From an uncultured Desulfobacula sp. (GTDB taxonomy: Bacteria > Desulfobacterota > Desulfobacteria > Desulfobacterales > Desulfobacteraceae), in contig CAZLTD010000007.1 of assembly GCA_964562385.1 (NCBI GenBank), positions 8,799 to 72,798 on the forward strand: a DNA stretch of 64,000 nt, written 5' to 3'. Positions 1 to 21,369 of the stretch are shown here, piece by piece. Position 1 is the first letter of the stretch, and each line of letters begins with the position of its first letter. The position numbers were made by a program, and so were the translations under genes. Below the pieces are notes generated by a model, which was not told where the DNA came from, made no database searches, and worked only from the letters and a program-made list of their open reading frames with translations.

Positions 1-849
1 CCGCCGCTGTCAAATATATATGCCGCCCATAAAGTTAATGGAACCCGCATGAATGTGGCTGTTGCGCTGGGAGTAGATCCGGCCATTCTCATCGGATCCG
101 TTCTAACCCCTCAGGAGGGTGTGGACAAACTGGCGTCTGCAGGGGGGATGGTCCGTTCGGCCATTGCCACGGTCAAGGCCCAGACAGCGGATGTAGAAGT
201 ACCGGCGTATGCGGAAATCGTCCTGGAAGGTTATATTGATCCCAAAGAAGATGAACAAGACAATATCTTGGGAGAGGTGAGCGGCATGTACGTCGGGTTC
301 TCAAGTCCGACAATTCATGTTACCACCGTGACCATGCGGCGCAATGCCGTTTACCATGGTCTGCTGCCCCATGGGGCTGAAGTTGATCAGCTGCTGGCAT
401 TCATTTTCGGGCTCAAAATCATACCCAGAATGAAACAGGATTTCCCTTCGATCGTCGACATCCATTTTACCCCTGAAACTTTTGGTTCCCACATTGTCAT
501 GTCCATGGACACCGATGACAAAGGAGATATCCGCCGGGCAATGACCGCCATGCTCACCTTCTCCAACGTTAAAAAGGCTGTTGTTGTCAACAAAGATGTG
601 GATATTCGAAATCCTCTGGAAGTTGAATGGGCCATGGCCACCCGATTTCAGGCGGACCGGGACCTTATTATTATTCCGGGATTAAAAGGACCGGCCATTG
701 ATCCGTCCGCAGGCCCCGGATTCATGACGACAAAACAGGGAATTGATGCCACATGCCCGGCGCAAAAGGGATTTGGAAGAATCCGGTTTCCCGAAGAAAT
801 TCAAAACCGATTGCCATATAGTATCAACGAATTAAATATACAGGAATAA
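1..849 (+). CDS. UbiD-family (prenyl-FMN dependent) decarboxylase/carboxylase, C-terminal part; the 5' end lies outside the window
   Basis: Frame 1 is open from nt 1 (PPLSNIYAAHKVNGTR precedes the listed Met at 49). UbiD-type blocks are present: VAVALGVDP, VPAYAEIVLEGYIDP, EWAMATRFQADRD. The stop lies 2 nt before the ubiX start. Confidence 0.9.
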   Translation, partial: PPLSNIYAAHKVNGTRMNVAVALGVDPAILIGSVLTPQEGVDKLASAGGMVRSAIATVKAQTADVEVPAYAEIVLEGYIDPKEDEQDNILGEVSGMYVGFSSPTIHVTTVTMRRNAVYHGLLPHGAEVDQLLAFIFGLKIIPRMKQDFPSIVDIHFTPETFGSHIVMSMDTDDKGDIRRAMTAMLTFSNVKKAVVVNKDVDIRNPLEVEWAMATRFQADRDLIIIPGLKGPAIDPSAGPGFMTTKQGIDATCPAQKGFGRIRFPEEIQNRLPYSINELNIQE

Positions 850-851
850 TC

Positions 852-1478
852 ATGAAAAGACTTGTCGTAGGAATGTCAGGCGCAACCGGGGCCATCTATG
901 GTATCCGGCTTCTTGAAGTACTCTCGGAATCGGATGTTGAAACCCATCTGGTGATTTCAAAGGCAGCTGAAAAAACCATTCGGATGGAAACACCCTGGTC
1001 TGTAGACAAGGTAAAGTCCCTGGCACATACCTGCTACGATCCCAGAAACATCGGTGCCAATATTGCCAGTGGCTCTTTTCTCAATGAAGGTATGGTGGTT
1101 ATCCCCTGTGCCATCAAGACGCTGTCCGGAATTGCACACTCATACAATGACAATCTGCTGACGCGTGCCGCCGATGTGACCATTAAAGAAAAGCGCAAAC
1201 TGGTCATTGTTGCCCGTGAAACGCCTTTCCATAAGGGGCATCTGAAGCTGATGATGGAAGCGGCTGATTTAGGGGCAACAATTTTACCTCCGGTACCGGC
1301 ATTTTACTGCATGCCGAAAACCATTGACGACCTTGTCAATCATCTTGTGGGAAAAGTTCTGGATATGTTCGGCATCGAAAACAATCTGTTTCACCGCTGG
1401 GGCAGCGAAGAGATCGAAAAAGCACTGGCCCAAAAAGAGATCCAGGAGGGTGTCCTTGAAAAACACCTGGTCAAATGA
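852..1478 (+). CDS. ubiX: Flavin prenyltransferase UbiX (prenyl-FMN synthase)
   Basis: N-terminus MKRLVVGMSGATGAIYGIRLLEVL is the typical UbiX/Pad1 flavoprotein fold signature. Length is 208 aa and the gene is tightly coupled to the upstream UbiD gene. Confidence 0.93.
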   Translation: MKRLVVGMSGATGAIYGIRLLEVLSESDVETHLVISKAAEKTIRMETPWSVDKVKSLAHTCYDPRNIGANIASGSFLNEGMVVIPCAIKTLSGIAHSYNDNLLTRAADVTIKEKRKLVIVARETPFHKGHLKLMMEAADLGATILPPVPAFYCMPKTIDDLVNHLVGKVLDMFGIENNLFHRWGSEEIEKALAQKEIQEGVLEKHLVK

Positions 1479-1563
1479 AGTAACACCCAAACCTGGTGTA
1501 GTCTGATTTTTAAAAAATTTTACCGTCTTCCGGTGCTGGAAGGCCGAATCTTAAGGGGACGTC

Positions 1564-2436
1564 ATGACGGATCGTATTGTTTCTATTGAGCAGGCTGTAG
1601 AAGATATTCGCAACGGAAAAATGGTAATTCTGGTGGATGACGAAGACCGGGAAAATGAAGGGGACCTGTGTTGCGCAGCCCAGCTGGTTACGCCTGAAAT
1701 CATCAACTTTATGGCAACCCATGCCCGCGGTCTGATCTGCGTCTCCCTTACCGGGGACAGACTTGATGCATTGGGGCTGAACCCCATGGTGCAGGACAAC
1801 CAGTCACAGTACGAAACCGCTTTTACCAAATCCATTGATGCTGCCAAAGGAATCACAACAGGCATCTCCGCACAGGATCGAGCCCATACTATTCTCACTG
1901 TTGTGGATAAAGATATGGGGGCGGGCGACTTAGTCTGTCCCGGGCATACATTTCCCTTGCGGGCACGCAGCGGCGGGGTGCTGACGCGTCCGGGGCAGAC
2001 CGAAGGCTCGGTTGACCTGTCAAGGCTGGCAGGATTGAAGCCTGCCGGTGTTATCTGCGAAATCATGAATGACGACGGCACCATGGCACGGATGCCTGAA
2101 TTGATTGAATTTGGCGAGAAATTCGGGATTAACATTGTTTCTGTAGCCGCCCTGATCCAGTACCGTCTGCTCAATGAAACCCTGATCCACCAGACAGGGA
2201 AAAAGAGGCATCTGCCAAGGGAGCAGGGAGAACTAACCGTGGTGACATATGAATCGAATCTGACACCCGAGGCCTCATATATTGCGATGATCAAAGGGGA
2301 AATATCACAAAATGATCAAGTGCTGGTGAGGATTCATAAAGAGTGCTTCCTGGGTGATTTTGTCAACTCCTCTCTATGTGACTGCAGCCGCAAACTGCGT
2401 GACTCAAAACAGATCATCACTGAGGCGGGAAAATGA
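1564..2436 (+). CDS. ribB: 3,4-dihydroxy-2-butanone-4-phosphate synthase (RibB domain) fused to the start of a degenerate GTP-cyclohydrolase-II-like domain (RibBX-like); ends at an in-frame TGA
   Basis: DHBP synthase motifs are present: [29 protein letters not shown]. The ORF then continues with [21 protein letters not shown], resembling the RibA zinc-site block. TGA at 2434-2436. Confidence 0.88.
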
Positions 2437-2700
2437 ATTCTTTTGTATATCCGCCGGAAAGACGGCCTGTTCGATTTTGAGCATCATGACGGCGGCTGTA
2501 CAGCCGATCAAACAGATGTTGATGCAACCCAAAACCAGAATGAGATCGTGAAACGGCAGGAACTTTTCCATTGCGGAATCTGTGCAAAAATTTTGCTGGA
2601 TCTGGGTGTAAAAAAGGTCCGCCCCATCATCGGCAGACCGGATCATGGAATTAATTTTGAAGCGTACGACCTGAGGCTGGCAGAACGTGTGACAATATGA
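2437..2700 (+). other. Continuation of the degenerate RibA-like domain, in the same frame as 1564-2436 and separated from it only by the TGA at 2434-2436
   Basis: Same frame as the ribB ORF. ILLYIRRKDG and GICAKILLDLGVKKVRPIIGRPDHGINFEAYDLRLAERVTI align by eye to RibA VLLYLRQEGRG and [32 protein letters not shown]. The stop overlaps the fni ATG (ATGA at 2697-2700). Confidence 0.55.
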
Positions 2701-3710
2701 CAGCAAAAGACAAAACCATTTCCAACCGTAAGGACGATCACATCTCCATCTGCCTTAACAGCGATGTGACCTTTAATAAAACAAATGGTTTTGAAAAATT
2801 TGATTTGATGCACCAGGCAATGCCGGAACTCAGCCTGGCCGATATTGATACTTCAACAACTTTCCTGGGAAAACATTTTTCCTATCCTTTTTTTATTGAA
2901 GCACTTACCGGCGGGACAAAAAGGGCGCAAAAAATAAACCAGAACCTGGCCCGGGCAGCCGCCCAGTTCGGCATTGGAATGGGAGTCGGTTCCCAACGGG
3001 CCATGCTGGTAAACAAGGATGCAATCCGATCCTATCAGGTCCGTGATGTGGCGCCTGATATCCTGCTGCTTGGGAACATCGGCGCCACCCAGCTTCCGGG
3101 TCTTAAAACCGAGACTGTTGTGGATATGGTCAATCAAATCGGGGCAGACGGTATGGCTGTTCACCTGAATGCCGCCCAGGAGCTGTGTCAGCCCGAAGGG
3201 GATACGGACTGGTCCGATATCCGTTCCCATATTGAACGTATCTGCACTGAACTTCCATTTCCGGTTATTGTCAAGGAAACCGGCTGCGGCATTGATGGAA
3301 AGACAGCCCGGCTGCTGGCTGCTGCCGGCGTTGCCTGCCTGGATATTGCCGGGGCAGGCGGCACCTCTTTTACCAAGGTCGAATCTTATCGGGGACTTGA
3401 AAGCTGTGAGACATTTGCCGAATGGGGAATCCCGACGGCAGAGTCCCTGAGGCAGTGCCGGAAATCAACCAATATCCCATTGATCGCCTCGGGCGGTCTT
3501 CGCACCGGTGTCGATTGCGCCAAGGCTATTGCCATGGGGGCGTCTCTTAACGGATTTGCCCTGCCCCTGCTGGCTGCTGCTCAACAATCTCACCGGGAGG
3601 TGATTTTGAAACTGACCGCATTGGGAGATGAGCTGAAAAAAGCCATGCTGCTTGTGGGAGCAGGCACTATCGATGAATTAAAGAGTGTGCAGGTCAATCC
3701 CAGCCAATGA
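2697..3710 (+). CDS. fni: Type 2 (FMN-dependent) isopentenyl-diphosphate delta-isomerase
   Basis: RKDDHISICL near the N-terminus, FIEALTGG, GVGSQR and VKETGCG blocks match the IDI-2 family pattern. Length 337 aa. Confidence 0.88.
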   Translation: MTAKDKTISNRKDDHISICLNSDVTFNKTNGFEKFDLMHQAMPELSLADIDTSTTFLGKHFSYPFFIEALTGGTKRAQKINQNLARAAAQFGIGMGVGSQRAMLVNKDAIRSYQVRDVAPDILLLGNIGATQLPGLKTETVVDMVNQIGADGMAVHLNAAQELCQPEGDTDWSDIRSHIERICTELPFPVIVKETGCGIDGKTARLLAAAGVACLDIAGAGGTSFTKVESYRGLESCETFAEWGIPTAESLRQCRKSTNIPLIASGGLRTGVDCAKAIAMGASLNGFALPLLAAAQQSHREVILKLTALGDELKKAMLLVGAGTIDELKSVQVNPSQ

Positions 3711-3791
3711 GGGTTGCTTCACTTGCATCAGGGGCAACCGAGCGGATCTAAATTATAAGTTTAGTTTATGATTTCCATAAGTTAAATGATT

Positions 3792-3821
3792 TTGACAACC
3801 TAAGCTGCAAAAGAGTAAAAA
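3792..3821 (+). promoter_or_regulatory. Candidate sigma70-type promoter for the carboxylase genes
   Basis: TTGACA at 3792-3797 and TAAAAA at 3816-3821 (18-nt spacer), about 60 nt upstream of the strong SD (AGAGGAGGA) of the 3880 gene. Confidence 0.3.
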
Positions 3822-3879
3822 ATTCAGAAGATAGCGTTAAAAAGTTAATTTTTCATACATAAGACAGAGGAGGAAATTC

Positions 3880-5295
3880 ATGGATCTTAGGGACTTCATC
3901 GCCATGTGCGAGAAAGAAAATGACCTGAAACGGATAACCGCCGAAGTGGATTGGGATCTGGAAATGAGCCATATTTCCAAACTGGTTGAAGAGAAAGACG
4001 GCCGGGCTGTGTTGTTTGAAAATGTCAAAGGCCATAATGGTTCCGTTCTTTTTGGCGCCTACAGCAGCACCAAGCGGCTGGCCATGACTCTTGGCAAGCC
4101 AGCGCATTTGAGCATGGCCCAGTTGAGCCATGAATGGATGAAGATGTCCATCGGTGATGTAATCCGATCCAAAGAGGTCAAAGACGGACCGGTTTTCGAA
4201 AACATTATTGAAGAAGAAAATGTCAATGTTTTCAACCTGCCCTCGCCCAAATTTTATGACAAGGATGGCGGACGGTTCATCGGAACTGCCTGTTTTATGG
4301 TGGTAAAAGATATTGAAACCAATGAGATAAACCTGGGTACCTACAGAAGCCAGGTGCTGGATGAGAAAACCGTAGGGGCACAGATCTTAAAGGGCAAACG
4401 CGGTGACCGTATTCTGCAGAAATGGCGTAAAGCGGGCAAGAAAATGCCGATCTGTCTGGTGGTTGGCTGCGACCCTTTATTGATGCTGGCCGGAAGTGCC
4501 ATGGTGGAAAATGCCAGTGAATATGATGTGGTGGGAACGCTGCGTGGTGAGCCGGTGGAAATTGTAGAAGCACCGCTGACCGGCCTGCCGATCCCGGCCA
4601 CCGCCGAAATCGTTCTGGAAGGGTATATTGACGGGGATAACCTTCGACCTGAAGGACCCTTTGGCGAATATACAGGCTTTTACACGGATGAGCTCAATAA
4701 CATCGTGAAAAAGCCGGCCATTGATGTAAAACGTATTTATCATCGTAACGATCCCATCATGCTGGCCGCTTCTGTGGGCCGACCGGTGAATGACAACCAT
4801 ATGATGCTGGCATTTGTCCGTAATGCAACACTCTGGACCGAACTGACACGCATGGGAATGAAAGGTATCCAATCGGTTTATATGCCTCCTGAAGCCTGCG
4901 GCCGCTTCTGGGCCATCATCTCGGTCAAGCAGATGTATCCCGGACACTCAAACCAGATTGCAGCGGCTGTGATCGCCAGCCACACCTGCACATACGGTCT
5001 TAAGGGGTTGATCATTGTGGATGATGATATTGCAGCAGACGACCTGCCACGGGTATGGTGGGCTCTGGCCACCCGTTACGATCCTGCGCGGGGTACCCAG
5101 ATTATCAATCGCGGCCGGTCAACACCCCTGGATCCGGCCTTGAGCCATGATGAGAACAAATTTATCACCTCCCGCATCATCATGGACGCCACCTTTCCGT
5201 TCGAATGGGAAGAAAAACCGGTACAGGTCGATATGAACCAGGACGTTCTTGACCGCATAAAAGAGCGTTGGGGAGAGCTCGGGTTGGATGATTGA
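3880..5295 (+). CDS. UbiD-family carboxylase large subunit (phenylphosphate-carboxylase alpha/beta-like)
   Basis: 471 aa. UbiD blocks: DGGRFIGT..NLGTYRSQ, AEIVLEGYIDGD, GPFGEYTGFY, WWALATRYDP. Strong SD GAGGAGGA 6 nt upstream. Confidence 0.88.
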   Translation: MDLRDFIAMCEKENDLKRITAEVDWDLEMSHISKLVEEKDGRAVLFENVKGHNGSVLFGAYSSTKRLAMTLGKPAHLSMAQLSHEWMKMSIGDVIRSKEVKDGPVFENIIEEENVNVFNLPSPKFYDKDGGRFIGTACFMVVKDIETNEINLGTYRSQVLDEKTVGAQILKGKRGDRILQKWRKAGKKMPICLVVGCDPLLMLAGSAMVENASEYDVVGTLRGEPVEIVEAPLTGLPIPATAEIVLEGYIDGDNLRPEGPFGEYTGFYTDELNNIVKKPAIDVKRIYHRNDPIMLAASVGRPVNDNHMMLAFVRNATLWTELTRMGMKGIQSVYMPPEACGRFWAIISVKQMYPGHSNQIAAAVIASHTCTYGLKGLIIVDDDIAADDLPRVWWALATRYDPARGTQIINRGRSTPLDPALSHDENKFITSRIIMDATFPFEWEEKPVQVDMNQDVLDRIKERWGELGLDD

Positions 5296-5416
5296 TCTGG
5301 TGTGAAAAAATTGAGAGCCACATATCTTAAGTAACTGCGCCGTTAGCGGCAGCGCAGCGGTACAACCCCCATAATGATGACCATTATGGAGGTTAGAGGA
5401 GAGAAGGAGAAAAAAT

Positions 5417-5707
5417 ATGATTGTTAATCGAAGAACATTTATTGTCAAAAAAGGTTGTTCCGAAAAAGTGGTGGAACTGCTTAAGGATGCCACAAAAGGT
5501 GCCAGCGTTCCTAAAGTGGTAAGAATTTATCAATGGTCAATCAGCCCCAGCGACCAGGTGACCTGGGAGGCGGAATTTGAAGACATAGAGGAATATTCCA
5601 AATTCTCTACAGAATGGGTCGGCGATCCAAAACGGGCTGACCTGCTTGAAAAATTCAATGATCTTACGGTTCCTGGCGGCACCAGTGAAATTTTACGCCT
5701 GGCCTGA
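5417..5707 (+). CDS. Small (96 aa) protein between the two UbiD paralogs; possible accessory subunit, function unknown
   Basis: SD-rich leader (GGAGAGAAGGAGA). The composition is protein-like, with alternating beta/alpha pattern reminiscent of small alpha+beta barrel proteins. No family was recognised with certainty. Confidence 0.6.
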   Translation: MIVNRRTFIVKKGCSEKVVELLKDATKGASVPKVVRIYQWSISPSDQVTWEAEFEDIEEYSKFSTEWVGDPKRADLLEKFNDLTVPGGTSEILRLA

Positions 5708-5862
5708 TTGAACCGGACTTAAGAAAAGACAAGATCAAGTGGGAAGAGGCTATCACAAAGATAATAAAAACGGTTTGGATTGGTTCATAGGAAATGCGGA
5801 CTCATCTGAAACCGGATAATTTAAAAGTCGAATAAACCATTTTTTATAAAAAGGAGTGTTCA

Positions 5863-7302
5863 ATGGCGTACAACTGCCCAAAAGACAATCGTGAGTATAT
5901 CAAGAGGCTGGAAGAAAGCGGCGACCTTCGCATCATAGAGCAGGAGGTTGATTGGGATTTGGAAATGGGTGCGATCACCAGAAAGGTTTGCGAGGAGCAA
6001 GCACCTTCTCCCTATTTCAAAAACATCAAGGATTACCCGGGCTTTGAAAGCCTTGGGGCACCCATGGCCACCTGGCGACGTCTGGCCATTGCCATGGGAA
6101 TGGAAGCCGACGCTGCTGTCCCGGACATTTGTAGCGAGTATGTCAAACGGAACCAGGGTGAACCCATTGACCCTGTGGTTGTGGAAAAAAGTGCTGCTGC
6201 CTGTAAAGACAACATTCTTCTGGGTGATGATGCCAATCTGTTTCATCTGCCGGGACCTATGGTGCACGACGGCGACGGCGGCCGGTATCTGGCAACCTGG
6301 CATTTTGTCGTAAGCAAGGATATGGATACTGAGGAGATCAACTGGGGCATGTACCGGATGATGGTGTTTGACGAAAAGACCATGGTCGGACCAGTGTTGC
6401 CGTTCTCTGATATGGGTAAGATGTTTCACGGCAAATACGCACCCCAAAACAAGCCCATGCCATTTGCTGCCGTACTTTCTGCTGATCCGATGTCGAGTCT
6501 GGCATCATGTGCACCAACACAACTGCCGGAAGACCAGTTTGCCGGCATGCTCAAGGGAGAACCAGTGGAGGTTGTGCAGTGCGAGACCTGTGATCTGATG
6601 GTTCCGGCCAATGCAGAAATTATCATTGAAGGTGAGGTTATTCCTGGTATTGAAATTGAAGAAGCACCGTTTGGTGAGTATACCGGCTATCGAACATCCC
6701 CCAGGGAACCGAGAACCGTATACCGAATTAAGGCCATCACCTATCGGAATAATCCCGTCCTGATGATATCCAACATGGGTATGCCTGTGGATGAGGGGCA
6801 GTTGCTGCGCTCTTTCTCTTTAGCGCTTGAAATGCACAAGCTGCTGGAAAGCCAGGGTATTCCCATCACCGGTGTTTACATGCTGCCGGAGTCAACCCAT
6901 CACATAGTGGTTGTCGGTGTAAAAACAGCCTACACTGGAATTGCACAGCAGATTGCCAACCTGATTTACGGAAGCAAGCTGGCTCCATGGTTCCATATGA
7001 CCATTGTGGTGGATGAGGACACGGACATTTACAGTAAAGATGAGGTGATCCATGCGCTGGCTACCAAGTGTCATCCCATCCGCGACATCCACAAATATGA
7101 AAATGCACCGGGTACGCCTTTAAATCCGTATGCGTCGCCAGAGGAACGGAAAACAAGCACAGGTGCCAAGGTTCTTTTTGATTGCACCTTCCCGTTAGAT
7201 TGGCCAAAATCTGATCTGCCGATCAGGGTCTCTTTTGACAATGTATATCCTCAGGAAATTCAAGACAAGGTAAATGAAAACTGGAAAAAGTTCGGATACT
7301 AA
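5863..7302 (+). CDS. UbiD-family carboxylase large subunit (second paralog, phenylphosphate-carboxylase alpha/beta-like)
   Basis: 479 aa. Blocks: DGGRYLATWHFVVSKD..NWGMYRMM, AEIIIEGEV, APFGEYTGYRT, IHALATKCHP. SD AAAGGAG upstream. Confidence 0.88.
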   Translation: MAYNCPKDNREYIKRLEESGDLRIIEQEVDWDLEMGAITRKVCEEQAPSPYFKNIKDYPGFESLGAPMATWRRLAIAMGMEADAAVPDICSEYVKRNQGEPIDPVVVEKSAAACKDNILLGDDANLFHLPGPMVHDGDGGRYLATWHFVVSKDMDTEEINWGMYRMMVFDEKTMVGPVLPFSDMGKMFHGKYAPQNKPMPFAAVLSADPMSSLASCAPTQLPEDQFAGMLKGEPVEVVQCETCDLMVPANAEIIIEGEVIPGIEIEEAPFGEYTGYRTSPREPRTVYRIKAITYRNNPVLMISNMGMPVDEGQLLRSFSLALEMHKLLESQGIPITGVYMLPESTHHIVVVGVKTAYTGIAQQIANLIYGSKLAPWFHMTIVVDEDTDIYSKDEVIHALATKCHPIRDIHKYENAPGTPLNPYASPEERKTSTGAKVLFDCTFPLDWPKSDLPIRVSFDNVYPQEIQDKVNENWKKFGY

Positions 7303-7376
7303 ACCCATTGGGTGATCTATTGATTTAAGAATGTTTTGAAACCCATTATAAATGATTAATTACGGAGGTAATCCTG

Positions 7377-7637
7377 ATGCCACAAAAAGAATACGACACC
7401 TATATTCTTACAGATATTAACGCGGTACCAGATGATCAGAAGAACATTGAGTTGATCATCCGTGATTTGAATCCTCAAGACCCGCGATTCAAATACAACA
7501 GCTGTTTTGCCAAGGCAAATGTTTCCAAAGACAAATCCCGTTACCCGGACGCCCTGTGGGTCCGTCTTGGAAGGGGTCAGCTGCAGGATGAACCATGGTC
7601 CATTGAAGTTTTGGAAAAAGTGGACAAGTTCGCATAA
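7377..7637 (+). CDS. Small (86 aa, about 10 kDa) protein following the second UbiD paralog; candidate gamma-like subunit
   Basis: SD ACGGAGGT 7 nt upstream. Size and position match the 10-kDa subunit of Thauera phenylphosphate carboxylase. The sequence identity was not verifiable by eye. Confidence 0.6.
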   Translation: MPQKEYDTYILTDINAVPDDQKNIELIIRDLNPQDPRFKYNSCFAKANVSKDKSRYPDALWVRLGRGQLQDEPWSIEVLEKVDKFA

Positions 7638-7666
7638 TCGCATCTATTACAATCAAACACGGCCTG

Positions 7667-7700
7667 CCCGGGGGGATCTTTTTGCTCCCCCGGGTTTTGC
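7667..7700 (+). terminator. Rho-independent terminator-like hairpin after the 86-aa gene
   Basis: CCCGGGGGA (7667-7675) pairs with TCCCCCGGG (7686-7694) around a 10-nt loop, followed by TTTT. Confidence 0.6.
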
Positions 7701-7720
7701 TGATTCTTTTTTAAACCCGG

Positions 7721-7765
7721 TTAATATGGATCAGATTAATATGGACCCAATTAATATCGACCAGG
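7721..7765 (+). repeat. Three tandem 15-nt units: TTAATATGGATCAGA / TTAATATGGACCCAA / TTAATATCGACCAGG
   Basis: Read directly from the sequence. The units lie between the terminator and the SD-supported start at 7783, and would encode NMDQI-NMDPI-NIDQ if the gene started at 7726. Confidence 0.85.
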
Positions 7766-7782
7766 AGCAATGGAGAAACATT

Positions 7783-8292
7783 ATGGAGCAGGCAAAAAAC
7801 ATAAAGTTGTTGATACTTGATGTTGACGGGGTAATGAGTGATGGCGGTATTTATATGGATGAGAACGGACTGCAGCACCGCCGTTTTGATATCAAAGATG
7901 GGTTGGGGACCGTTGTTCTGCCGATGATGGGCGTCGAAGTTGCCATCATTACCTCAAAGAAGTCGGGTGCTGTTCGATTTCGTGCAAAAGAGCTGAGAAT
8001 CAAACGTTTCTACGAAGGTATCAAAAAGAAGACCGAGGCTTTTGAAGAGATTAAGGCCGACATGGGTATTGAAGACCACGAGGTCTGCTATATGGGGGAC
8101 GATCTTGTTGATCTAAGCATGATGAAGCGCGTGGGTCTGCCTGTATCTGTTGCCGATGGGGTGGCCGAAGTGAAAGAGGCGGCAGCCTATATCACTCAGG
8201 CAAAGGGCGGCTATGGCGCCGTTCGAGAGGTAGCTGAGATGATCCTGAAGGCCCAGGGTAAATGGGAGAAGATCCTGGAAAAAGTGGGTTGA
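7783..8292 (+). CDS. KdsC-type HAD phosphatase (phenylphosphate-carboxylase delta-like, about 18 kDa)
   Basis: HAD motif I LILDVDGVMSDG, then ITSKKS and a MGDDLVDL motif. GGAGA lies 6 nt upstream of the ATG at 7783. Alternative in-frame ATGs at 7726 and 7741 lack an SD. The 7507 extension overlaps the previous gene and the terminator. Confidence 0.78.
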   Translation: MEQAKNIKLLILDVDGVMSDGGIYMDENGLQHRRFDIKDGLGTVVLPMMGVEVAIITSKKSGAVRFRAKELRIKRFYEGIKKKTEAFEEIKADMGIEDHEVCYMGDDLVDLSMMKRVGLPVSVADGVAEVKEAAAYITQAKGGYGAVREVAEMILKAQGKWEKILEKVG

Positions 8293-8371
8293 TAGGAAGC
8301 GTTATCTGTATCTAAAAAAAAGAGGGGCTTGTTTGTGAAAGGAAATATGTGCCCGGATTCCGGCCCAAAAG

Positions 8372-9043
8372 TTACCTGAACAATTTCAATGGAAATAAGA
8401 TGTTCGCCTCCGGGATACTGGCGTGCGGGCTTTTTGTGATTACATAATTTTCGCAACTTCCGACCGGATTGAAACGCTCTTTTTTTAGATAAAAAAATCC
8501 TTTAAGTGACCTGGCTGCGGATGCTGCAAATTTAAAAACAGCCATTTTCTGCACTGGTTGCTCTCCTTTTCTTTCACTGATCCGGAGCTTGCCCTGGGTT
8601 TTTGATGCTTCAGGCCGGGAGAGGCAAACGATATCTCCGTCCGTAAGATTAAGCTTTTGTTTCAAACTGCAGGATGCGATCACCTCAAGAATCCGGTCTT
8701 CATGGATACGTACCTCTTTACCGGGAATCACCACTGCAGCCGGAGTATCGTTCAACATTATTCTTTTAACACCGGCTGAACAAAAAGTGGGATCGTCCGG
8801 TATCAATTCAAAATCCGAAGGTTCAAGAAGACGGCTCAAACGGGCAAGGTCCCGGTCATTGATTCTCACATTCAAGGTTCCGGGAAACGGTTTATACCCC
8901 AGATTCTTCCTGCATTGCTCTACAACCCAGTCGATCTGGGTAAAAAAGGCGCCTTTGCCTGCGCCACTAAGAACGGTGCCTGAGATTTCCATTTCGTTTT
9001 TACCTTCTTCAAAAAAAAAATTATTTTCACCGACCGCCATCAA
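8372..9043 (-). CDS. Archaeal-type (CTP-dependent family) riboflavin kinase domain protein with an unusual C-terminal tail of about 80 aa
   Basis: GTVLSGAGKGAFF..LGYKPFPGTLNV...AAVVIPGKEVRIHEDRILEVIA...LNLTDGDIV matches the archaeal riboflavin kinase (MJ0056-type) pattern. The start overlaps the upstream HAD stop (ATGA). Confidence 0.78.
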   Translation of the reverse strand: MMAVGENNFFFEEGKNEMEISGTVLSGAGKGAFFTQIDWVVEQCRKNLGYKPFPGTLNVRINDRDLARLSRLLEPSDFELIPDDPTFCSAGVKRIMLNDTPAAVVIPGKEVRIHEDRILEVIASCSLKQKLNLTDGDIVCLSRPEASKTQGKLRISERKGEQPVQKMAVFKFAASAARSLKGFFYLKKERFNPVGSCENYVITKSPHASIPEANILFPLKLFR

Positions 9044-9753
9044 ATAAAATTGCTGACCACAAGCTGTGTAAGGTCTGCCACGCTGTCAAGGATCATGGTC
9101 GGGTTTTCCTTTTCAAGCGTTTCCCGGTCGTGAAGTCCGGTCAATACCCCGATGGTCATCATACCGGCTTTGCGGCCTGCCTGAATGTCAACATGACAGT
9201 CCCCGATAAAGATACAGCGGGACGGCTGCACCGAAAGTTTCCGGGCACATGCAAGCAGTGGATCAGGCGCCGGTTTCTTTTTTGGGGCATCTTCTGTTGC
9301 TATCACTGACGCCAGCGATGCTTTCAGGCCTTTGCGGGCCAGGGGTGTCAACTTTAAATCCATATAGGCCCGATGTGTGGAACTGACAACGCCAATGGGT
9401 ATCTTTCTTAAGGTGATCTCTGAAAACAATTGTTCCACCCCCGGTATCAATTCAACTTCCTTCTGAAAGGTGCTCCGCAGCTTTTGGCGTCCCAAAGAGA
9501 GAAACTTTTTGATCAGCTCTTCTTTTTGGTCATGCATTTCCTGAGGAATCATGTTTTCAAAGGCCGGCAGCCCCTGGATCATAAAATCAGCAATCCGGGA
9601 TCTGGGCGCCGGCGGCAGACCGAGGGTCTCCATCATCCATGCCATCACTCGAAAATATGAGGGTATGGAGTCGATCAGCGTGCCATCCAGGTCAAACATG
9701 ACGGCCTGGACCGTCCATTTTTTCTCCTTAAAGGGAATAATCGTCTCCATCAT
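9040..9753 (-). CDS. HAD-IA family phosphatase (phosphoglycolate-phosphatase-like)
   Basis: Motif I MFDLDGTLIDS, motif II VVSST, and a KKKPAPD..FIGDCHVDIQAG motif III/IV. Confidence 0.85.
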   Translation of the reverse strand: MMETIIPFKEKKWTVQAVMFDLDGTLIDSIPSYFRVMAWMMETLGLPPAPRSRIADFMIQGLPAFENMIPQEMHDQKEELIKKFLSLGRQKLRSTFQKEVELIPGVEQLFSEITLRKIPIGVVSSTHRAYMDLKLTPLARKGLKASLASVIATEDAPKKKPAPDPLLACARKLSVQPSRCIFIGDCHVDIQAGRKAGMMTIGVLTGLHDRETLEKENPTMILDSVADLTQLVVSNFI

Positions 9754-9897
9754 TTAGTTCAGTGGAACATGGTAACTGATATCAGCCTCACCCGAATATT
9801 TCACGAACGTGTAACCTCTTGAAGCTTAAACAAGTGTCTGATCCTTGTATCACTAAGTATTCGGGTATCATGAAATATCCGGGCCGCAAGGCCTTAA

Positions 9898-11226
9898 TTA
9901 ATGCTTTCTCAAATCCTTAAACCGTTTAGCCTTAACATCATATCGGGGCAGGCGGCCGTAATCGTAAAACTCGATGCGGTAACCCAGGTTTGTTTTTAAC
10001 CGGAGACTATCCTTGAGCTGGTCTTCGACGGCTTTGGCGCGATCTTCCTGGCCGGGAATCAGCTCAACCTTTAATTTAATTCGGTCCACATCGCCAAGCT
10101 TGTCCACAATGACTTCGTATTCATCACCCAGACCATCAATACTCCTGACCACCTCTTCGATGGCTGATGGTGCCAGCAGAACGCCTTTGACCTTTGTAAT
10201 GTCATCGGCCCGTCCGACAACCCCGCCCTTGATCAAACGGAATGTCCGCCCGCAGGAGCAGGTAGCGCTGTCCCATTCAATGATATCCTTGGCATCAAAC
10301 CTGACGCAGGGCTGGGCAAACCGGTCCAGGGCGGTGATGATCATTTTGCCTCGACGCCCGGGCTCTTCTATAATTTCACCGGTATCCACGTCTTCAATTT
10401 CCACCAGGAAAAATGCATCATTGACATGCATCCCACCGGGCTGCGCCTGGCATTCAAAAGACCACGCCCCGATTTCCGTTGCACCGGCGTGATCATAAAC
10501 TTTTGCGTTCCACGCATTCTGCATCCGTTTTTTAGTACTGGGTATGCTGGCTCCGGGCTCTCCGGCACAGGTAATTTTTTGGATACCCAGGGCGGACGGG
10601 TCAATGTCCATTTTCTGTTTTGCCGTATCTGCCATACCCAGTACATAGGTGGGAGTGGCCATCATGGCCGTGGCATTCAACTCCTGGATTTTTAATATCC
10701 TGGCCTGGGTATCGAGCACACCTCCGGGCACCACTTCACACCCGACCTTTTCGGCCGCGTAATGACCGGCCCAGAATGCAACAAAGATATTATACCCGAA
10801 CGGGATGAATACCCGGTCGGAGGGTCGGTACCCCTGGGCCCACAGTATATATGCCCAGCACTCGGACCACCATTCCCAGTCCTGCCACGTATCGGCCTGA
10901 TATACCGGCTGCCCGGTGGTTCCGCTGGTCTGGCGGAATGCGGTGACGTCATCCAAAGGGACGCACAGGGCATCACCGTAAGGAAACGGATCCTTGCGCT
11001 GGATGTCACGCATCATGGATTTTTCTACTTTGGGTACCTTTTGAACGTCGGCCATCGTGCGAATATCCCCGGGAGCTATCCCTGCCTGGTCATAGAGCTT
11101 GCGATGAAATTTAGAATTATCATAGGCCCATTTAAAAATTCTTTTAAATTTATGGAGTTGCAGGTTCCTCAATGCTTCACGGTCCATTGTCTCTAATACA
11201 GGATTCCAAAAAGGTGTATTGTCCAT
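9898..11226 (-). CDS. Phenylacetate-CoA-ligase (PaaK)/coenzyme F390 synthetase family adenylate-forming ligase; candidate aryl-carboxylate-CoA ligase
   Basis: 442 aa. FRQTSGTTGQP AMP motif, YDHAGATE, GRADDITKVKG; PaaK-type length and organisation. Confidence 0.85.
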   Translation of the reverse strand: MDNTPFWNPVLETMDREALRNLQLHKFKRIFKWAYDNSKFHRKLYDQAGIAPGDIRTMADVQKVPKVEKSMMRDIQRKDPFPYGDALCVPLDDVTAFRQTSGTTGQPVYQADTWQDWEWWSECWAYILWAQGYRPSDRVFIPFGYNIFVAFWAGHYAAEKVGCEVVPGGVLDTQARILKIQELNATAMMATPTYVLGMADTAKQKMDIDPSALGIQKITCAGEPGASIPSTKKRMQNAWNAKVYDHAGATEIGAWSFECQAQPGGMHVNDAFFLVEIEDVDTGEIIEEPGRRGKMIITALDRFAQPCVRFDAKDIIEWDSATCSCGRTFRLIKGGVVGRADDITKVKGVLLAPSAIEEVVRSIDGLGDEYEVIVDKLGDVDRIKLKVELIPGQEDRAKAVEDQLKDSLRLKTNLGYRIEFYDYGRLPRYDVKAKRFKDLRKH

Positions 11227-11252
11227 TTTTATATCCCCACTATAACTTTTCG

Positions 11253-11435
11253 TTATGCGTTTTTGCCATACTCTTCAGGTTCGGTAAAATTGAGTTCCAG
11301 CATCTTGATAGCAGCCTTTATCCGCTGCAGATTGCTTTTCAGTGCCGGGAGTTCATTGCTGTATTCCTCAAGGCAAAGCGCTGATTCATTCAGCTTTTTA
11401 ATTTCGCGGCATATCTCTTCAATGGCTATATTCAT
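11253..11435 (-). CDS. Small (60 aa) helical protein upstream of the CoA ligase
   Basis: ATG at 11435 is preceded by GGGAGGTAAA (perfect SD, 4-nt spacer). The longer 120-aa track ORF has no SD and runs into a repeat element. Predicted sequence MNIAIEEICREIKKLNESALCLEEYSNELPALKSNLQRIKAAIKMLELNFTEPEEYGKNA. Confidence 0.5.
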   Translation of the reverse strand: MNIAIEEICREIKKLNESALCLEEYSNELPALKSNLQRIKAAIKMLELNFTEPEEYGKNA

Positions 11436-11551
11436 TTTACCTCCCATGAAAAATGCATATATCAATGGCCGGTCTGCCATTGGCATGATGCTTTTTTTGT
11501 TAGCGTTAAAAAGATGACATCTTTCATCCCGTGTGGCACTCGTGACAATGT

Positions 11552-11698
11552 AAATGAGGAATCGTACCAAAATAACTTGATCTAAATTGTTTCCAAAACC
11601 CCTTAAAAGACTCACTGCTTACGGGTATTTTAAAAACAAAAGTTCAAGTAAGGCAATGCACAGCTTTGCCCCTAAGTAATTTTGGAGCCGATCCTAAG
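11552..11698. repeat. Intergenic repeat family 1, copy A (about 145 nt); second copy at 32457-32593
   Basis: Aligned by eye. A 31-nt identical core CAAGTAAGGCAATGCACAGCTTTGCCCCTAA lies at 11645-11675 and 32540-32570. Shared blocks are AGGAATCG, ACTTGATCTAAA.TGTTTCC and GAGCCGATCCTAA, in the same orientation. Confidence 0.8.
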
Positions 11699-11995
11699 CC
11701 TTAAGATTCGTGGCTGTGCTATTATGAAAAATGGCTGCGGAACATGTCAATTTTATTATTCTTATGCCATATATAAACTAATATTATAAGTCCTTTTTGG
11801 GATGTAAATATCCACAGCTGCCGAGCGGCCTGGAAAAATTAAAAAACAGGCCAAAACCCTGTAAAACCATCTAATCTTTCAGTCTATAAGTATTTATAAT
11901 AGAACAAATAAGATAAAATAATTTGAAATTCATCACCGGCCTAAATAGATTTGGTAAATACGCTGATTTGTGGATTAAAAAAAGGAAATTTTTTA

Positions 11996-12673
11996 ATGGG
12001 CACCGCCATCCAGACCTACCAGGCACTGCTATTTGATCTTGAGGGAACACTGACAGATTTCCAATGGAATCTAAAAGGCGCAGCTGTCGAGATTCTGGAC
12101 CTGCTCTCAAAACATGGGATCGATCCTGACACTTTTGGTGAGAAACCGGACTATGCCCGTCTATTCAACACCACTCAAAAACTGATCACAACCTGGCCGC
12201 AGGATCGTGCCAAAGAACTGACCGGCAGACTGAATATCATTTATAACAGATACGATGCTGATGCCTTAAGCCGGTGGCAGCTATACCCGGATACGGTTTC
12301 GACTCTTAAGAAGCTGTTCAAAAACGGATACCGGATGGGTGTGGTCAGCAACTGCGGCAGGATAGCGGTGGATAAGGCTCTTAAAAAATTTAATCTGACC
12401 TCAGACTTTGACCTGATCATTTCCAGAAATGAGGTAGCCTTGGTTAAGCCTCACCCTGAGGGACTGCTTACCGCATGCCGGATACTTGACCTTCCACCGG
12501 AAGATATCCTGTTTGTCGGCGATTCCGTCAATGACATCCTGCCGGCCAATCAGATCGGCATGTGGTCGTGCTTTCTTTGCGGCGGGGAAAGCAGACTTAC
12601 CGGTGTGACTCACCATGGGGCCACCCACGAAATCGCAACTCTTTCCGATCTTTTCCAACTGCATCATCAATAA
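11996..12673 (+). CDS. HAD-IA family phosphatase
   Basis: Motif I LFDLEGTLTD, VVSNCG, and KPHPEGL..FVGDSVNDILPA. The start at 11996 (MGTAIQ) is preferred over 11951. Confidence 0.82.
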   Translation: MGTAIQTYQALLFDLEGTLTDFQWNLKGAAVEILDLLSKHGIDPDTFGEKPDYARLFNTTQKLITTWPQDRAKELTGRLNIIYNRYDADALSRWQLYPDTVSTLKKLFKNGYRMGVVSNCGRIAVDKALKKFNLTSDFDLIISRNEVALVKPHPEGLLTACRILDLPPEDILFVGDSVNDILPANQIGMWSCFLCGGESRLTGVTHHGATHEIATLSDLFQLHHQ

Positions 12674-12863
12674 AACCATATTCCATACACCGCCCCCACA
12701 CAAAGATATACCCGGTTAATTTTTCGTGAGAATTTTATAAATTTGCTTCGATATCATATTTTAAATATATAGTATTTATTTCACTCCTGCGGTATATTTG
12801 TTATTCAGGATGAATTAAAAAGCCGATTTTGTTCTTTATTAAAAAAAAGGAAAACTGATATCC

Positions 12864-20350: not shown

Positions 20351-20484
20351 AGGCTTTGTCAACTTTTTGTCTTATCCCCAATCCCTATTGCTTTTTTTTA
20401 TCAAACAGGATAATTTTTAATCTGTTTGTCAAACAACCTTGACAATTTGTGCCATAATAAAAACACTAAGGATCTTACAATACG

Positions 20485-21369
20485 ATGAACCGCTGCACAG
20501 GCAATCGTTTCAACCCCTTCATCAAAGCACTGCTGGTTCCTTTTTTCATTTTGACCACCCTGTCGGGATGTTCGGTCATCATGTCCTCGGCCACCTCGGA
20601 TATGATGTCCCATCTGTCCAAATCCATGTTGAACAATGATGACTTAAAACTTGTGGAAACCGGGGCACCGGCCTATCTTCTCATGGTGGACAGCCTGATC
20701 AGCAAGGACCCGGACAATGAGGACACCCTGGCCACGGCATCCATGCTCTATGCCGCCTATGCCGATGTCTTTGTAAAAGACAAGCAGCGGGCCCGTAAAA
20801 TGTCGGCCAAAGCCTTTGATTACGCCAAAAAAGCAGTCTGCCTGACCCAAAACGATGCCTGCGGCATTCAGGCCGTGAAATATGATGCATTTGAAAATGC
20901 CCTGCTCTCCTTTGAAAAAGACGATTTAAAGGCCCTGTTTGCCCTGGGGCAGTCCTGGGGCGGGTGGATCATGGCGAACAAGAGCGATGCTGCGGCCATC
21001 GCAGATCTCTCCCGCATCGAGGCTATCATGAAACGGATCATTGCCCTGGACGAAACCTTTAAAGACGGGGCACCCTTTGTTTATCTGGGGACCTTGTCAT
21101 CCTTTCTGCCGCCTGCGCTTGGCGGCCGGCCTGAAGAGGGCAAAGCCTATTTTGAAAAAGCCATTGATCTATCACAGGGAAAAAGCCTGACCGCCAAGGT
21201 AGCCTATGCCAGATTTTATGCCAGAAACATCTTTGACCGCGAGCTTCATGACCGGCTTTTAAATGATGTGATTGCGGCCAGTCCCTACGTTGACGGCCAT
21301 ACCCTTGTCAACGTCTGGGCACAAAAGCAGGCCAAACAATTATTAAACGAGGCTGATGATTACTTTTAA
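20485..21369 (+). CDS. TatT-type TPR lipoprotein associated with a TRAP transporter
   Basis: Lipobox LSGCS. Helical repeat protein immediately upstream of the DctP/Q/M genes, the same organisation as TPR-protein-associated TRAP transporters (TPATs). Confidence 0.65.
   Translation: MNRCTGNRFNPFIKALLVPFFILTTLSGCSVIMSSATSDMMSHLSKSMLNNDDLKLVETGAPAYLLMVDSLISKDPDNEDTLATASMLYAAYADVFVKDKQRARKMSAKAFDYAKKAVCLTQNDACGIQAVKYDAFENALLSFEKDDLKALFALGQSWGGWIMANKSDAAAIADLSRIEAIMKRIIALDETFKDGAPFVYLGTLSSFLPPALGGRPEEGKAYFEKAIDLSQGKSLTAKVAYARFYARNIFDRELHDRLLNDVIAASPYVDGHTLVNVWAQKQAKQLLNEADDYF

Follow-up and report, generated by a model that had tools for sequence, protein, structure and literature searches.

A putative prenyl-FMN precursor-supply module within a phenylphosphate carboxylase gene cluster of an uncultured Desulfobacula

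The first 13 kb of a 64-kb stretch of DNA from an uncultured Desulfobacula sp. (the window) form a single aromatic-catabolism cluster, in which plus-strand genes running from a UbiD-family gene to PpcD are met by three converging genes on the minus strand. The leading part of the cluster encodes the flavin prenyltransferase UbiX, a 3,4-dihydroxy-2-butanone 4-phosphate (DHBP) synthase with a partial second domain (RibB') and a type-2, FMN-dependent isopentenyl diphosphate (IPP) isomerase (IDI-2), and the converging genes include those for an archaeal-type riboflavin kinase (RibK) and a HAD-IA phosphatase. We read this segment, at a probability of roughly 0.65, as a facultative module that would supply precursors of prenylated FMN (prFMN) within a cluster for phenylphosphate (phenol) carboxylase. 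What the genes are, how they are arranged and in which other lineages they recur has been observed directly. The locus is present in identical form in several marine metagenome assemblies, including contig L001 (comparison loci are referred to by such numbers).

During growth on phenol, the UbiD-family subunits of the carboxylase would be made in large amounts, and UbiX would prenylate reduced FMN to give prFMN for PpcA, PpcB and the UbiD encoded upstream of UbiX. IDI-2 would move the pool of IPP and dimethylallyl diphosphate (DMAPP) toward DMAPP, the dimethylallyl donor; the methylerythritol phosphate (MEP) pathway, which the module-bearing bacteria presumably use, yields mostly IPP. A monofunctional archaeal-type RibK would turn riboflavin into FMN with no onward step to FAD, unlike the bifunctional RibF, and RibB' and the RibK-coupled HAD-IA would raise flux through the flavin branch, RibB' being a dispensable contributor apparently on its way to loss. 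IDI-2, which has no recognizable ribosome-binding site of its own, would be translated by way of the open reading frame (ORF) upstream. All of these enzymatic steps are predictions, as are the co-regulation of the module with the carboxylase and the dependence of the phenylphosphate carboxylase (Ppc) on prFMN. The substrate requirement of UbiX supplies a chemical reason why an isomerase would help: the enzyme strictly needs the dimethylallyl isomer and does not accept isopentenyl phosphate (PMC6541611).

A preliminary description of this stretch was correct on the presence and adjacency of UbiX, RibB and IDI-2, whose families all score above curated cut-offs. It went too far in seeing a self-sufficient supply line. 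RibB is the sole riboflavin-synthesis gene, and among the annotated ORFs of the 64 kb, which cover nearly all those of at least 130 aa, no riboflavin or isoprenoid gene was found besides RibB', RibK and IDI-2.

UbiX, its upstream UbiD and IDI-2

UbiX scores 263 bits against NF004685 (cut-off 188) and 250 bits against TIGR00421 (cut-off 109), and it aligns end to end with 1sbz, 6m8t, 6qlg and the Pseudomonas aeruginosa enzyme (PaUbiX), 1sbz being its best solved-structure match at 192 bits. Its start lies 2 nt beyond the stop of the upstream UbiD gene, which is cut by the window start and completes the set of three UbiD paralogs, with PpcB and PpcA, that had been counted here before. In L001 this UbiD is full length at 452 aa (6795-8153) and scores 272 bits against the generic model TIGR00148 (cut-off 245); it is a paralog distinct from both PpcA and PpcB. 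The UbiD-UbiX pair is also found in L019, L087, L089, L093, L094, L095, L109, L112 and L121, and a UbiD of the 452-aa type adjoins UbiX on the 5' side in all UbiX loci examined except L046, Desulfosarcina ovata and L099. RibK lies immediately 5' of this UbiD in L109, L112, L116-L119 and L121. A protein so regularly encoded beside UbiX may act as carrier or maturase of the cofactor instead of as a catabolic enzyme.

IDI-2 scores 396 bits against TIGR02151 (cut-off 281) and aligns over its full length with the enzymes of Thermus thermophilus and Sulfolobus shibatae (1vcf, 2zru). An N-terminal RKxxH motif is aligned between them, as are GSQR, HLNxxQExxQPEG, KExGxG and SGGxRxG. The product of 2697-3710 is, on its predicted activity, a canonical type-2 IPP isomerase. 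The closest named homologs, at 61-65% identity, are those of Desulfosarcina cetonica, D. variabilis and D. ovata.

Linkage of UbiX and IDI-2 across lineages

The neighborhoods of IDI-2 were compared in 80 loci from species-representative genomes, found by tblastn with the window proteins; this is a sample, not a census. In 10 of them, all among the closest relatives except L046 and L075, UbiX is located at most 10 kb from IDI-2, and it is essentially absent within that distance from about 60 loci of Chloroflexi, cyanobacteria and methanogens. Comparative genomics had been proposed as the check on the linkage, and it came out positive: UbiX and IDI-2 are linked in D. variabilis, in D. ovata and in six contigs from metagenomes or metagenome-assembled genomes (L019, L089, L090, L093, L046 and L121). 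RibK and HAD-IA usually accompany the pair, and the UbiD partners and gene orders vary.

The D. variabilis cluster reads delta-delta-UbiD-UbiD-gamma-UbiD-UbiX-IDI2-orf193-HAD-RibK-orf111, with a convergent gene for a PNPOx-like protein. D. ovata has IDI2-HAD-RibK-orf114 beside a divergently oriented unit that encodes UbiX, a UbiD resembling VdcC and an aryl-acid CoA ligase; the module there stands with a different carboxylase or decarboxylase. L019, L089 and L093 share the order PpcA-gamma-UbiD-UbiX-RibB'-IDI2 with a RibB' of 378 aa, and L090 has the same order with a RibB' of only 78 aa. In L046 the order is RibK-UbiX-IDI2-PNPOx-like, 3' of XdhC-type maturation genes and without a HAD gene. 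L121 (1-14466) is a metagenome contig with five UbiD paralogs and two ParA/MinD-like NTPases, ordered as two UbiD, two ParA/MinD, two UbiD, flavin reductase, RibK, UbiD, UbiX, HAD-IA and IDI-2. It holds candidates for the conversion of riboflavin to FMN, of FMN to FMNH2 and of IPP to DMAPP, that is, for each prFMN precursor step, and we take it to resemble the naphthalene and benzene carboxylase clusters of sulfate-reducing enrichments.

The adjacency of UbiX and IDI-2 is judged to be beyond chance because it recurs in other lineages in shuffled order. In a rough neighbor-joining tree, which has no support values, the Desulfobacterales IDI-2 form one clade and those of L046 and L121 fall elsewhere, giving at least three places in all. 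Since the UbiX-linked bacterial enzymes occupy three separate places, IDI-2 has probably been recruited next to UbiX several times.

Could the linkage have been inherited from archaea?

Among the loci listed, the closest IDI-2 outside the Desulfobacterales are those of DPANN and other uncultured archaea, which are 55-56% identical and have UbiX nearby, and in the same unsupported tree the Desulfobacterales clade is nested among them. The archaeal loci are ordered polyprenyl synthase, mevalonate kinase, UbiD, AcnX large and small subunits, UbiX, in some cases S-adenosylhomocysteine (AdoHcy) hydrolase, isopentenyl phosphate kinase (IPK) and IDI-2, as in L017, a segment of a complete Aenigmatarchaeota chromosome in which all of these genes are present and IPK is an amino-acid-kinase-fold protein. 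This is the archaeal mevalonate pathway, and in its Aeropyrum-type form a UbiD/UbiX pair decarboxylates anhydromevalonate phosphate (PMC9128505). The archaeal linkage of UbiX and IDI-2 thus has a known and different rationale.

These observations allow an alternative in which an archaeal mevalonate cluster was the source of IDI-2, and possibly of UbiX and RibK as well, the adjacency is a leftover and IDI-2 has a general isoprenoid role. The membership of RibK in an archaeal family is in keeping with it, as is the existence of Ppc clusters (L094, L095) that manage without IDI-2 in cis. A leftover would be expected to scatter, however, and UbiX and IDI-2 stay linked across differing gene orders, strands and UbiD enzymes; the IDI-2 of L046 and L121 are two further bacterial lineages that became linked to UbiX independently. 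UbiX itself is no nearer to archaeal UbiX (52-54% identity) than to the bacterial UbiX of L046, L109, L112 and L121 (56-61%), its close relatives being at 80-86%. The window cluster does share with the archaeal operon the adjacency of UbiX, a UbiD-family enzyme and a related IDI-2, but mevalonate-pathway genes are absent from it and from its bacterial relatives: the window cluster lacks AcnX, mevalonate kinase, IPK and polyprenyl synthase, and its UbiD partners are subunits of an aromatic carboxylase. In the archaeal operon IDI-2 is a pathway enzyme; in the module bacteria it would be an accessory. An origin as a mere leftover therefore looks improbable.

A 7-kb contig binned as Aenigmatarchaeota (L007, DAOVFN010000035.1; also L008) encodes an IDI-2 that is 61% identical to that of the window and groups with the Desulfobacterales clade. 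UbiX was not found on the L007 contig, and its IDI-2 may reflect mis-binning or recent transfer.

RibB' decay and the start of IDI-2

The DHBP synthase domain of RibB', approximately residues 1-205, is complete: it scores 245 bits against TIGR00506 (cut-off 177) and covers positions 1-191 of the 191 in the PF00926 profile. All RibBA equivalog models fall below their cut-offs (best 362, cut-off 569), and the window protein is predicted to have no functional GTP cyclohydrolase II (GCHII) domain. Its frame is broken by an in-frame TGA at 2434-2436 and resumes as an 85-codon ORF that is 41-47% identical to the corresponding part of intact 378-aa relatives. The TGA is real, since the RibB region is near-identical in six other metagenome contigs from different JGI and ENA samples (no mismatch in five, one in the sixth), all of them split into 290 and 85 aa; this recurrence excludes a sequencing error. 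Selenocysteine insertion was rejected as well, because a downstream SECIS-like fold is absent (z = -0.22) and the intact relatives have at this position the Gly of a conserved GKG, not a Cys.

Even in the intact relatives the GCHII-like domain is degenerate. Comparison with Mycobacterium tuberculosis RibA2 shows the catalytic-region motifs EGRGIGL, DTV.AN and D.R.Y-type to be gone, and the Cys-x10-Cys-x-Cys zinc motif to be kept. Second among the solved-structure matches for RibB', at 272 bits, is 6mnz, an example of RibBX, in which a DHBP synthase is fused to a catalytically dead GCHII domain, so that the label "RibB(X)" applied to this gene earlier is apt as a description. Unlike 6mnz, the window RibB' keeps the zinc cysteines and is cut by a stop codon; the two are likened by architecture, not by descent.

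The fate of RibB' differs among relatives. It is intact in L019, L089 and L093 and absent from both Desulfosarcina genomes, and in L090 (9768-10004) an in-frame deletion fuses its first 63 and last 15 residues into a remnant whose stop overlaps the start of IDI-2. A stop/start overlap with IDI-2 is kept in L089 and L093, where RibB' is intact, as it is in the L090 remnant. In the window the ATGA at 2697-2700 is such an overlap, as had been noted, although it joins the 85-codon remnant to IDI-2, not RibB.

UbiX, RibB' and PpcB each have a recognizable Shine-Dalgarno sequence in the window and IDI-2 has none. In view of the missing signal and of the stop/start overlap, ribosomes probably reach the IDI-2 start through translation of the preceding ORF. 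Coupling of this kind would explain why that frame stays open as far as its original stop once RibB function has gone, and the open remnants in the window and in L090 suggest selection on the expression of IDI-2, not on RibB.

RibK, the HAD-IA phosphatase and small partner proteins

RibK scores 94 bits against PF01982 (cut-off 25) and 70 bits against the NCBIfam equivalog NF040694 (cut-off 168), hence its membership is at the level of the family only. It aligns with the MJ0056 structure (2p3m), keeps the GxGxG..F and PxxGTLN motifs and shares 55-56% identity with its counterparts in D. ovata and D. variabilis. The stop of HAD-IA overlaps the RibK ATG by 1 nt, and the 47% identical HAD of D. 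variabilis likewise precedes RibK. A second scan, which included metagenome contigs, yielded 80 RibK loci, again a sample and not a census. In 44 of the 80 a HAD-IA gene is found no more than 1.2 kb from RibK, often with stop and start overlapping; the corresponding count for HAD-IA and IDI-2 is 1 of 80. UbiD or UbiX is nearby in 17 of the 80, and in 10 of the 27 (37%) with at least 6 kb of flank.

What might the phosphatase act on? The preliminary description had grouped three HAD phosphatases as candidates for the precursor pathway. One of them, HAD-IA at 9040-9753, is conserved; another is PpcD, and the delta protein is a subunit of phenylphosphate carboxylase (PMC6114531), which makes PpcD a carboxylase subunit and not a precursor phosphatase; the third, at 11951-12673, is not conserved in the related loci. 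For the conserved HAD-IA, the NCBIfam and solved-structure searches for a substrate returned generic, sub-threshold matches alone, among them phosphoglycolate phosphatase and PpaX.

The lead offered earlier was that this enzyme is a dedicated beta-phosphatase for DMAPP or IPP, so that IDI-2 and HAD together deliver dimethylallyl monophosphate (DMAP). Gene order gives this route some support: HAD-IA stands between UbiX and IDI-2 in L121, directly 3' of UbiX in L109 and L112, directly 3' of IDI-2 in D. ovata and one ORF further on in D. variabilis. The HADs also match HAD-type pyrophosphatases (PpaX and BT2127-type), which cleave P-O-P bonds, but the phosphoglycolate phosphatase matches are equal to these and all lie below cut-off. 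L046, moreover, has RibK-UbiX-IDI2 with no HAD at all. In the alignment with UbiX enzymes of solved structure, His164 of the window UbiX takes the position of H164 in the E. coli O157 enzyme, which uses both DMAP and DMAPP, and of F181 in the DMAP-specific P. aeruginosa enzyme, the H164-equivalent residue not being the sole determinant of this choice (PMC6541611). Since it has the histidine of the DMAPP-accepting enzyme, the window UbiX may take DMAPP directly and a DMAPP phosphatase is perhaps unneeded.

Known HAD activities include 5-amino-6-ribitylamino-uracil-phosphate phosphatase and FMN hydrolase. Because HAD tracks RibK and not IDI-2, a flavin-branch role of one of these two kinds would suit the conserved HAD-IA better, and is at least as likely as DMAPP dephosphorylation. 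Plants offer a parallel in their FMN hydrolase-riboflavin kinase, a fusion of a HAD domain to a riboflavin kinase; the tight coupling of HAD to kinase is alike, and the difference is that the window kinase belongs to the unrelated archaeal CTP-type family and that the two are separate genes. The monophosphate route is accordingly held to be doubtful. The preliminary description had also called the bacterial source of DMAP not generally settled, which is too strong for E. coli: a passage in PMC12359138, citing Wang 2018, gives as proposed routes the Nudix hydrolases NudB, NudF, NudI and NudJ acting on DMAPP, or ThiM acting on prenol. These routes likewise meet the need of UbiX for a dimethylallyl donor; they differ from the arrangement described here in that no such gene was found in the cluster, where the linked isomerase acts one step earlier and a HAD gene is added.

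Several small proteins accompany RibK. The product of orf111 (111-114 aa) belongs to no family and adjoins RibK, on the 3' side in Desulfosarcina-type loci and on the 5' side in many metagenome loci. A gene of this kind is present in D. variabilis, in D. ovata and, at no more than 1.2 kb from RibK, in 31 of the 80 sampled RibK loci (coordinates are L087 12893-13228 and L091 12384-12728); L093 seems to have it as a fusion with RibK. All that the window retains of orf111 is a short diverged piece ('VFKFAASAARSLKGFFYLKK') fused to the C-terminus of RibK, whose final ~60 aa (8372-8560) resemble the start of the small protein. A PNPOx-fold protein of ~160-175 aa with a weak match to YhbP stands beside the IDI-2/RibK module in five lineages (L087 13244-13747, minus strand; L091 12733-13257, minus strand; L092 1674-2153; L046 11066-11539; L093 ~20400-20880) and in 9 of the 80 RibK loci; the 64-kb window itself yielded no homolog. 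A flavin reductase (PF01613) occupies a similar position in L121, and the PNPOx-like protein is a candidate for FMN reduction or for the redox handling of prFMN. NCBIfam gave no match for orf96, orf111, orf193 or orf215, and a Pfam run made for orf96 alone gave none either.

The phenylphosphate carboxylase cluster

All four subunits of phenylphosphate carboxylase, the UbiD-type alpha and beta, the gamma and the HAD-type delta, are encoded together in the window (Table 1). An orf96 homolog, 73% identical, is present in L089. Intergenic gaps measure 85 nt between UbiX and RibB' and 169 nt between IDI-2 and PpcB. The PaaK-like ligase, whose minus-strand gene lies 5' of those for HAD and RibK, is a probable 4-hydroxybenzoate-CoA ligase, and the D. 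anilini phenol cluster lists a comparable ligase (PMC6114531). A phenylphosphate synthase (PEP-utilizer, PPDK_N) was found neither among the annotated ORFs of the window nor in ~7 kb upstream in L001, where the genes at 1-6800 encode a CoA transferase, a short-chain dehydrogenase/reductase, a thiolase, a sigma-54 activator and a LysR regulator.

Table 1. Features of the catabolic cluster in the window
Feature	Position	Strand	Basis or remark
UbiD-family protein, C-terminal 266 aa	49-849	+	PF01977, PF20696; 5' end beyond window start
UbiX flavin prenyltransferase, 208 aa	852-1478	+	NF004685, TIGR00421
RibB' (DHBP synthase and partial GCHII-like domain)	1564-2436	+	TIGR00506
Remnant ORF, 85 codons, C-terminal GCHII-like part	2443-2700	+	RibB' frame
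Type-2 FMN-dependent IPP isomerase (IDI-2), 337 aa	2697-3710	+	TIGR02151
PpcB, phenylphosphate carboxylase beta (UbiD family)	3880-5295	+	TIGR02724 643 bits, cut-off 469
orf96, 96 aa, no family	5417-5707	+	between PpcB and PpcA
PpcA, phenylphosphate carboxylase alpha (UbiD family)	5863-7302	+	TIGR02723 664 bits, cut-off 565
PpcC, phenylphosphate carboxylase gamma, 86 aa	7377-7637	+	PF09662 on identical gene in L001, L003
PpcD, phenylphosphate carboxylase delta, KdsC-like HAD, 188 aa	~7726-8292	+	TIGR02726 263 bits, just below cut-off 282
RibK, archaeal-type CTP-dependent riboflavin kinase	8372-9043	-	PF01982; likely start ATG at 9040
HAD-IA phosphatase	9040-9753	-	PF13419, PF00702
PaaK-like aryl-CoA ligase	9898-11226	-	NF041878, TIGR02155 ~230 bits, below cut-offs; PF14535
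Second HAD-IA	11951-12673		no conserved counterpart in related loci

Evidence against a dedicated supply role

A number of observations weigh against the proposed precursor-supply role. The closest Ppc relatives, L094 and L095, have a PpcB 93% and a PpcA 88-89% identical to those of the window, and in both of them PpcB lies directly 3' of UbiX, with no RibB' or IDI-2; RibK-orf111, in part with HAD, stands at the cluster end. Because UbiX and PpcB are directly joined there, the RibB'-IDI-2 pair is considered a facultative cassette whose cis copies the carboxylase can evidently do without, and the earlier picture of an IDI-2 hard-wired to ubiX does not hold. RibB' is clearly the least conserved member of the module and appears dispensable and decaying, given its truncation in the window, its dead remnant in L090 and its absence from both Desulfosarcina genomes. 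Part of the linkage between UbiX and IDI-2 could be inherited rather than selected, since the closest IDI-2 outside the Desulfobacterales adjoin UbiX in archaeal mevalonate operons.

Transcription signals in the window give no help to the proposal. A search of the window and L001 for sigma-54 promoters (TGGCAC-N5-TTGCW, at most 2 mismatches) gave fewer matches than shuffled sequences and none in the relevant intergenic regions. A sigma-70 scan of 1-12900 returned promoter-like sites at chance level, and a terminator scan of the same region gave 24 sites against a chance level of 14.5 (sd 4.3), a modest excess; neither scan yields usable operon boundaries. The hairpin 3' of UbiX, at 1483-1499, is weak.

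The RibK-HAD pair, finally, may serve general flavin metabolism: about half of the longer RibK-HAD loci, RibK-HAD-orf111 units included, have no UbiX or UbiD within 10 kb. Taken further, RibB', HAD and RibK could raise FMN for many flavoenzymes of aromatic degradation, with no specific tie to UbiX, and IDI-2 would simply be one of the clients, being an FMN enzyme itself. This broader role is regarded as very unlikely. UbiD or UbiX is near 37% of the RibK loci with enough flank, whereas a few UbiD copies per genome are estimated to give a few per cent by chance, and RibK is the immediate neighbor of UbiX, or of the UbiD paired with it, in L046, L109, L112, L116-L119 and L121.

Comparison with known clusters and significance

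The phenylphosphate carboxylase cluster of Thauera aromatica is alike in combining PpcA-D with an extra UbiD-UbiX pair in one cluster. The window and its Desulfosarcina relatives differ from this type in adding IDI-2, archaeal-type RibK, HAD-IA and, variably, RibB', and the window cluster has no adjacent phenylphosphate synthase genes, unlike Thauera and unlike L089 and L093, whose clusters contain PPDK_N and PEP-utilizer genes. The openly searchable literature on anaerobic phenol, benzene, naphthalene and phenanthrene degradation and on UbiX does not mention IDI-2, RibK or RibB in UbiX/UbiD clusters, although prior mention is possible. The proposed module would extend the known UbiX/UbiD system by a gene set for precursor supply and overturns nothing, the placing of cofactor genes beside their clients being a familiar logic.

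UbiD enzymes matter in the anaerobic activation of phenol, phthalate, benzene and naphthalene, in ubiquinone synthesis and in biocatalytic carboxylation and decarboxylation, and their heterologous use is often limited by the supply and maturation of prFMN. Because the module exists in two named species with sequenced genomes, D. variabilis and D. ovata, it provides concrete candidate genes for the feeding and maturation of prFMN in anaerobes, and a ready gene set for co-expression with UbiD enzymes.

A bolder version can be sketched, and it is speculative. Sulfate-reducing and related anaerobes might attach a portable "prFMN factory" to any UbiD carboxylase. It is a long shot that RibK, UbiX and a flavin reductase or PNPOx/YhbP-like protein, the last for FMNH2 or for O2-free redox maturation, belong to one such device. 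Equally tentative would be the inclusion of HAD as a dedicated phosphatase from DMAPP to DMAP and of an IDI-2 captured from an archaeal mevalonate operon, and it is likewise conjectural that the constant partner UbiD and orf111 act in it as carrier or maturase. If true, this version would identify several of the factors still missing from the account of how anaerobes make and mature prFMN.

Directly past the catabolic cluster, at 12864-15800 of the window, lies a gene for a 978-aa protein with multiple WD40 beta-propellers and a C-terminal caspase domain of the EACC1-associated type (NF047832), which could be a conflict or cell-death system.

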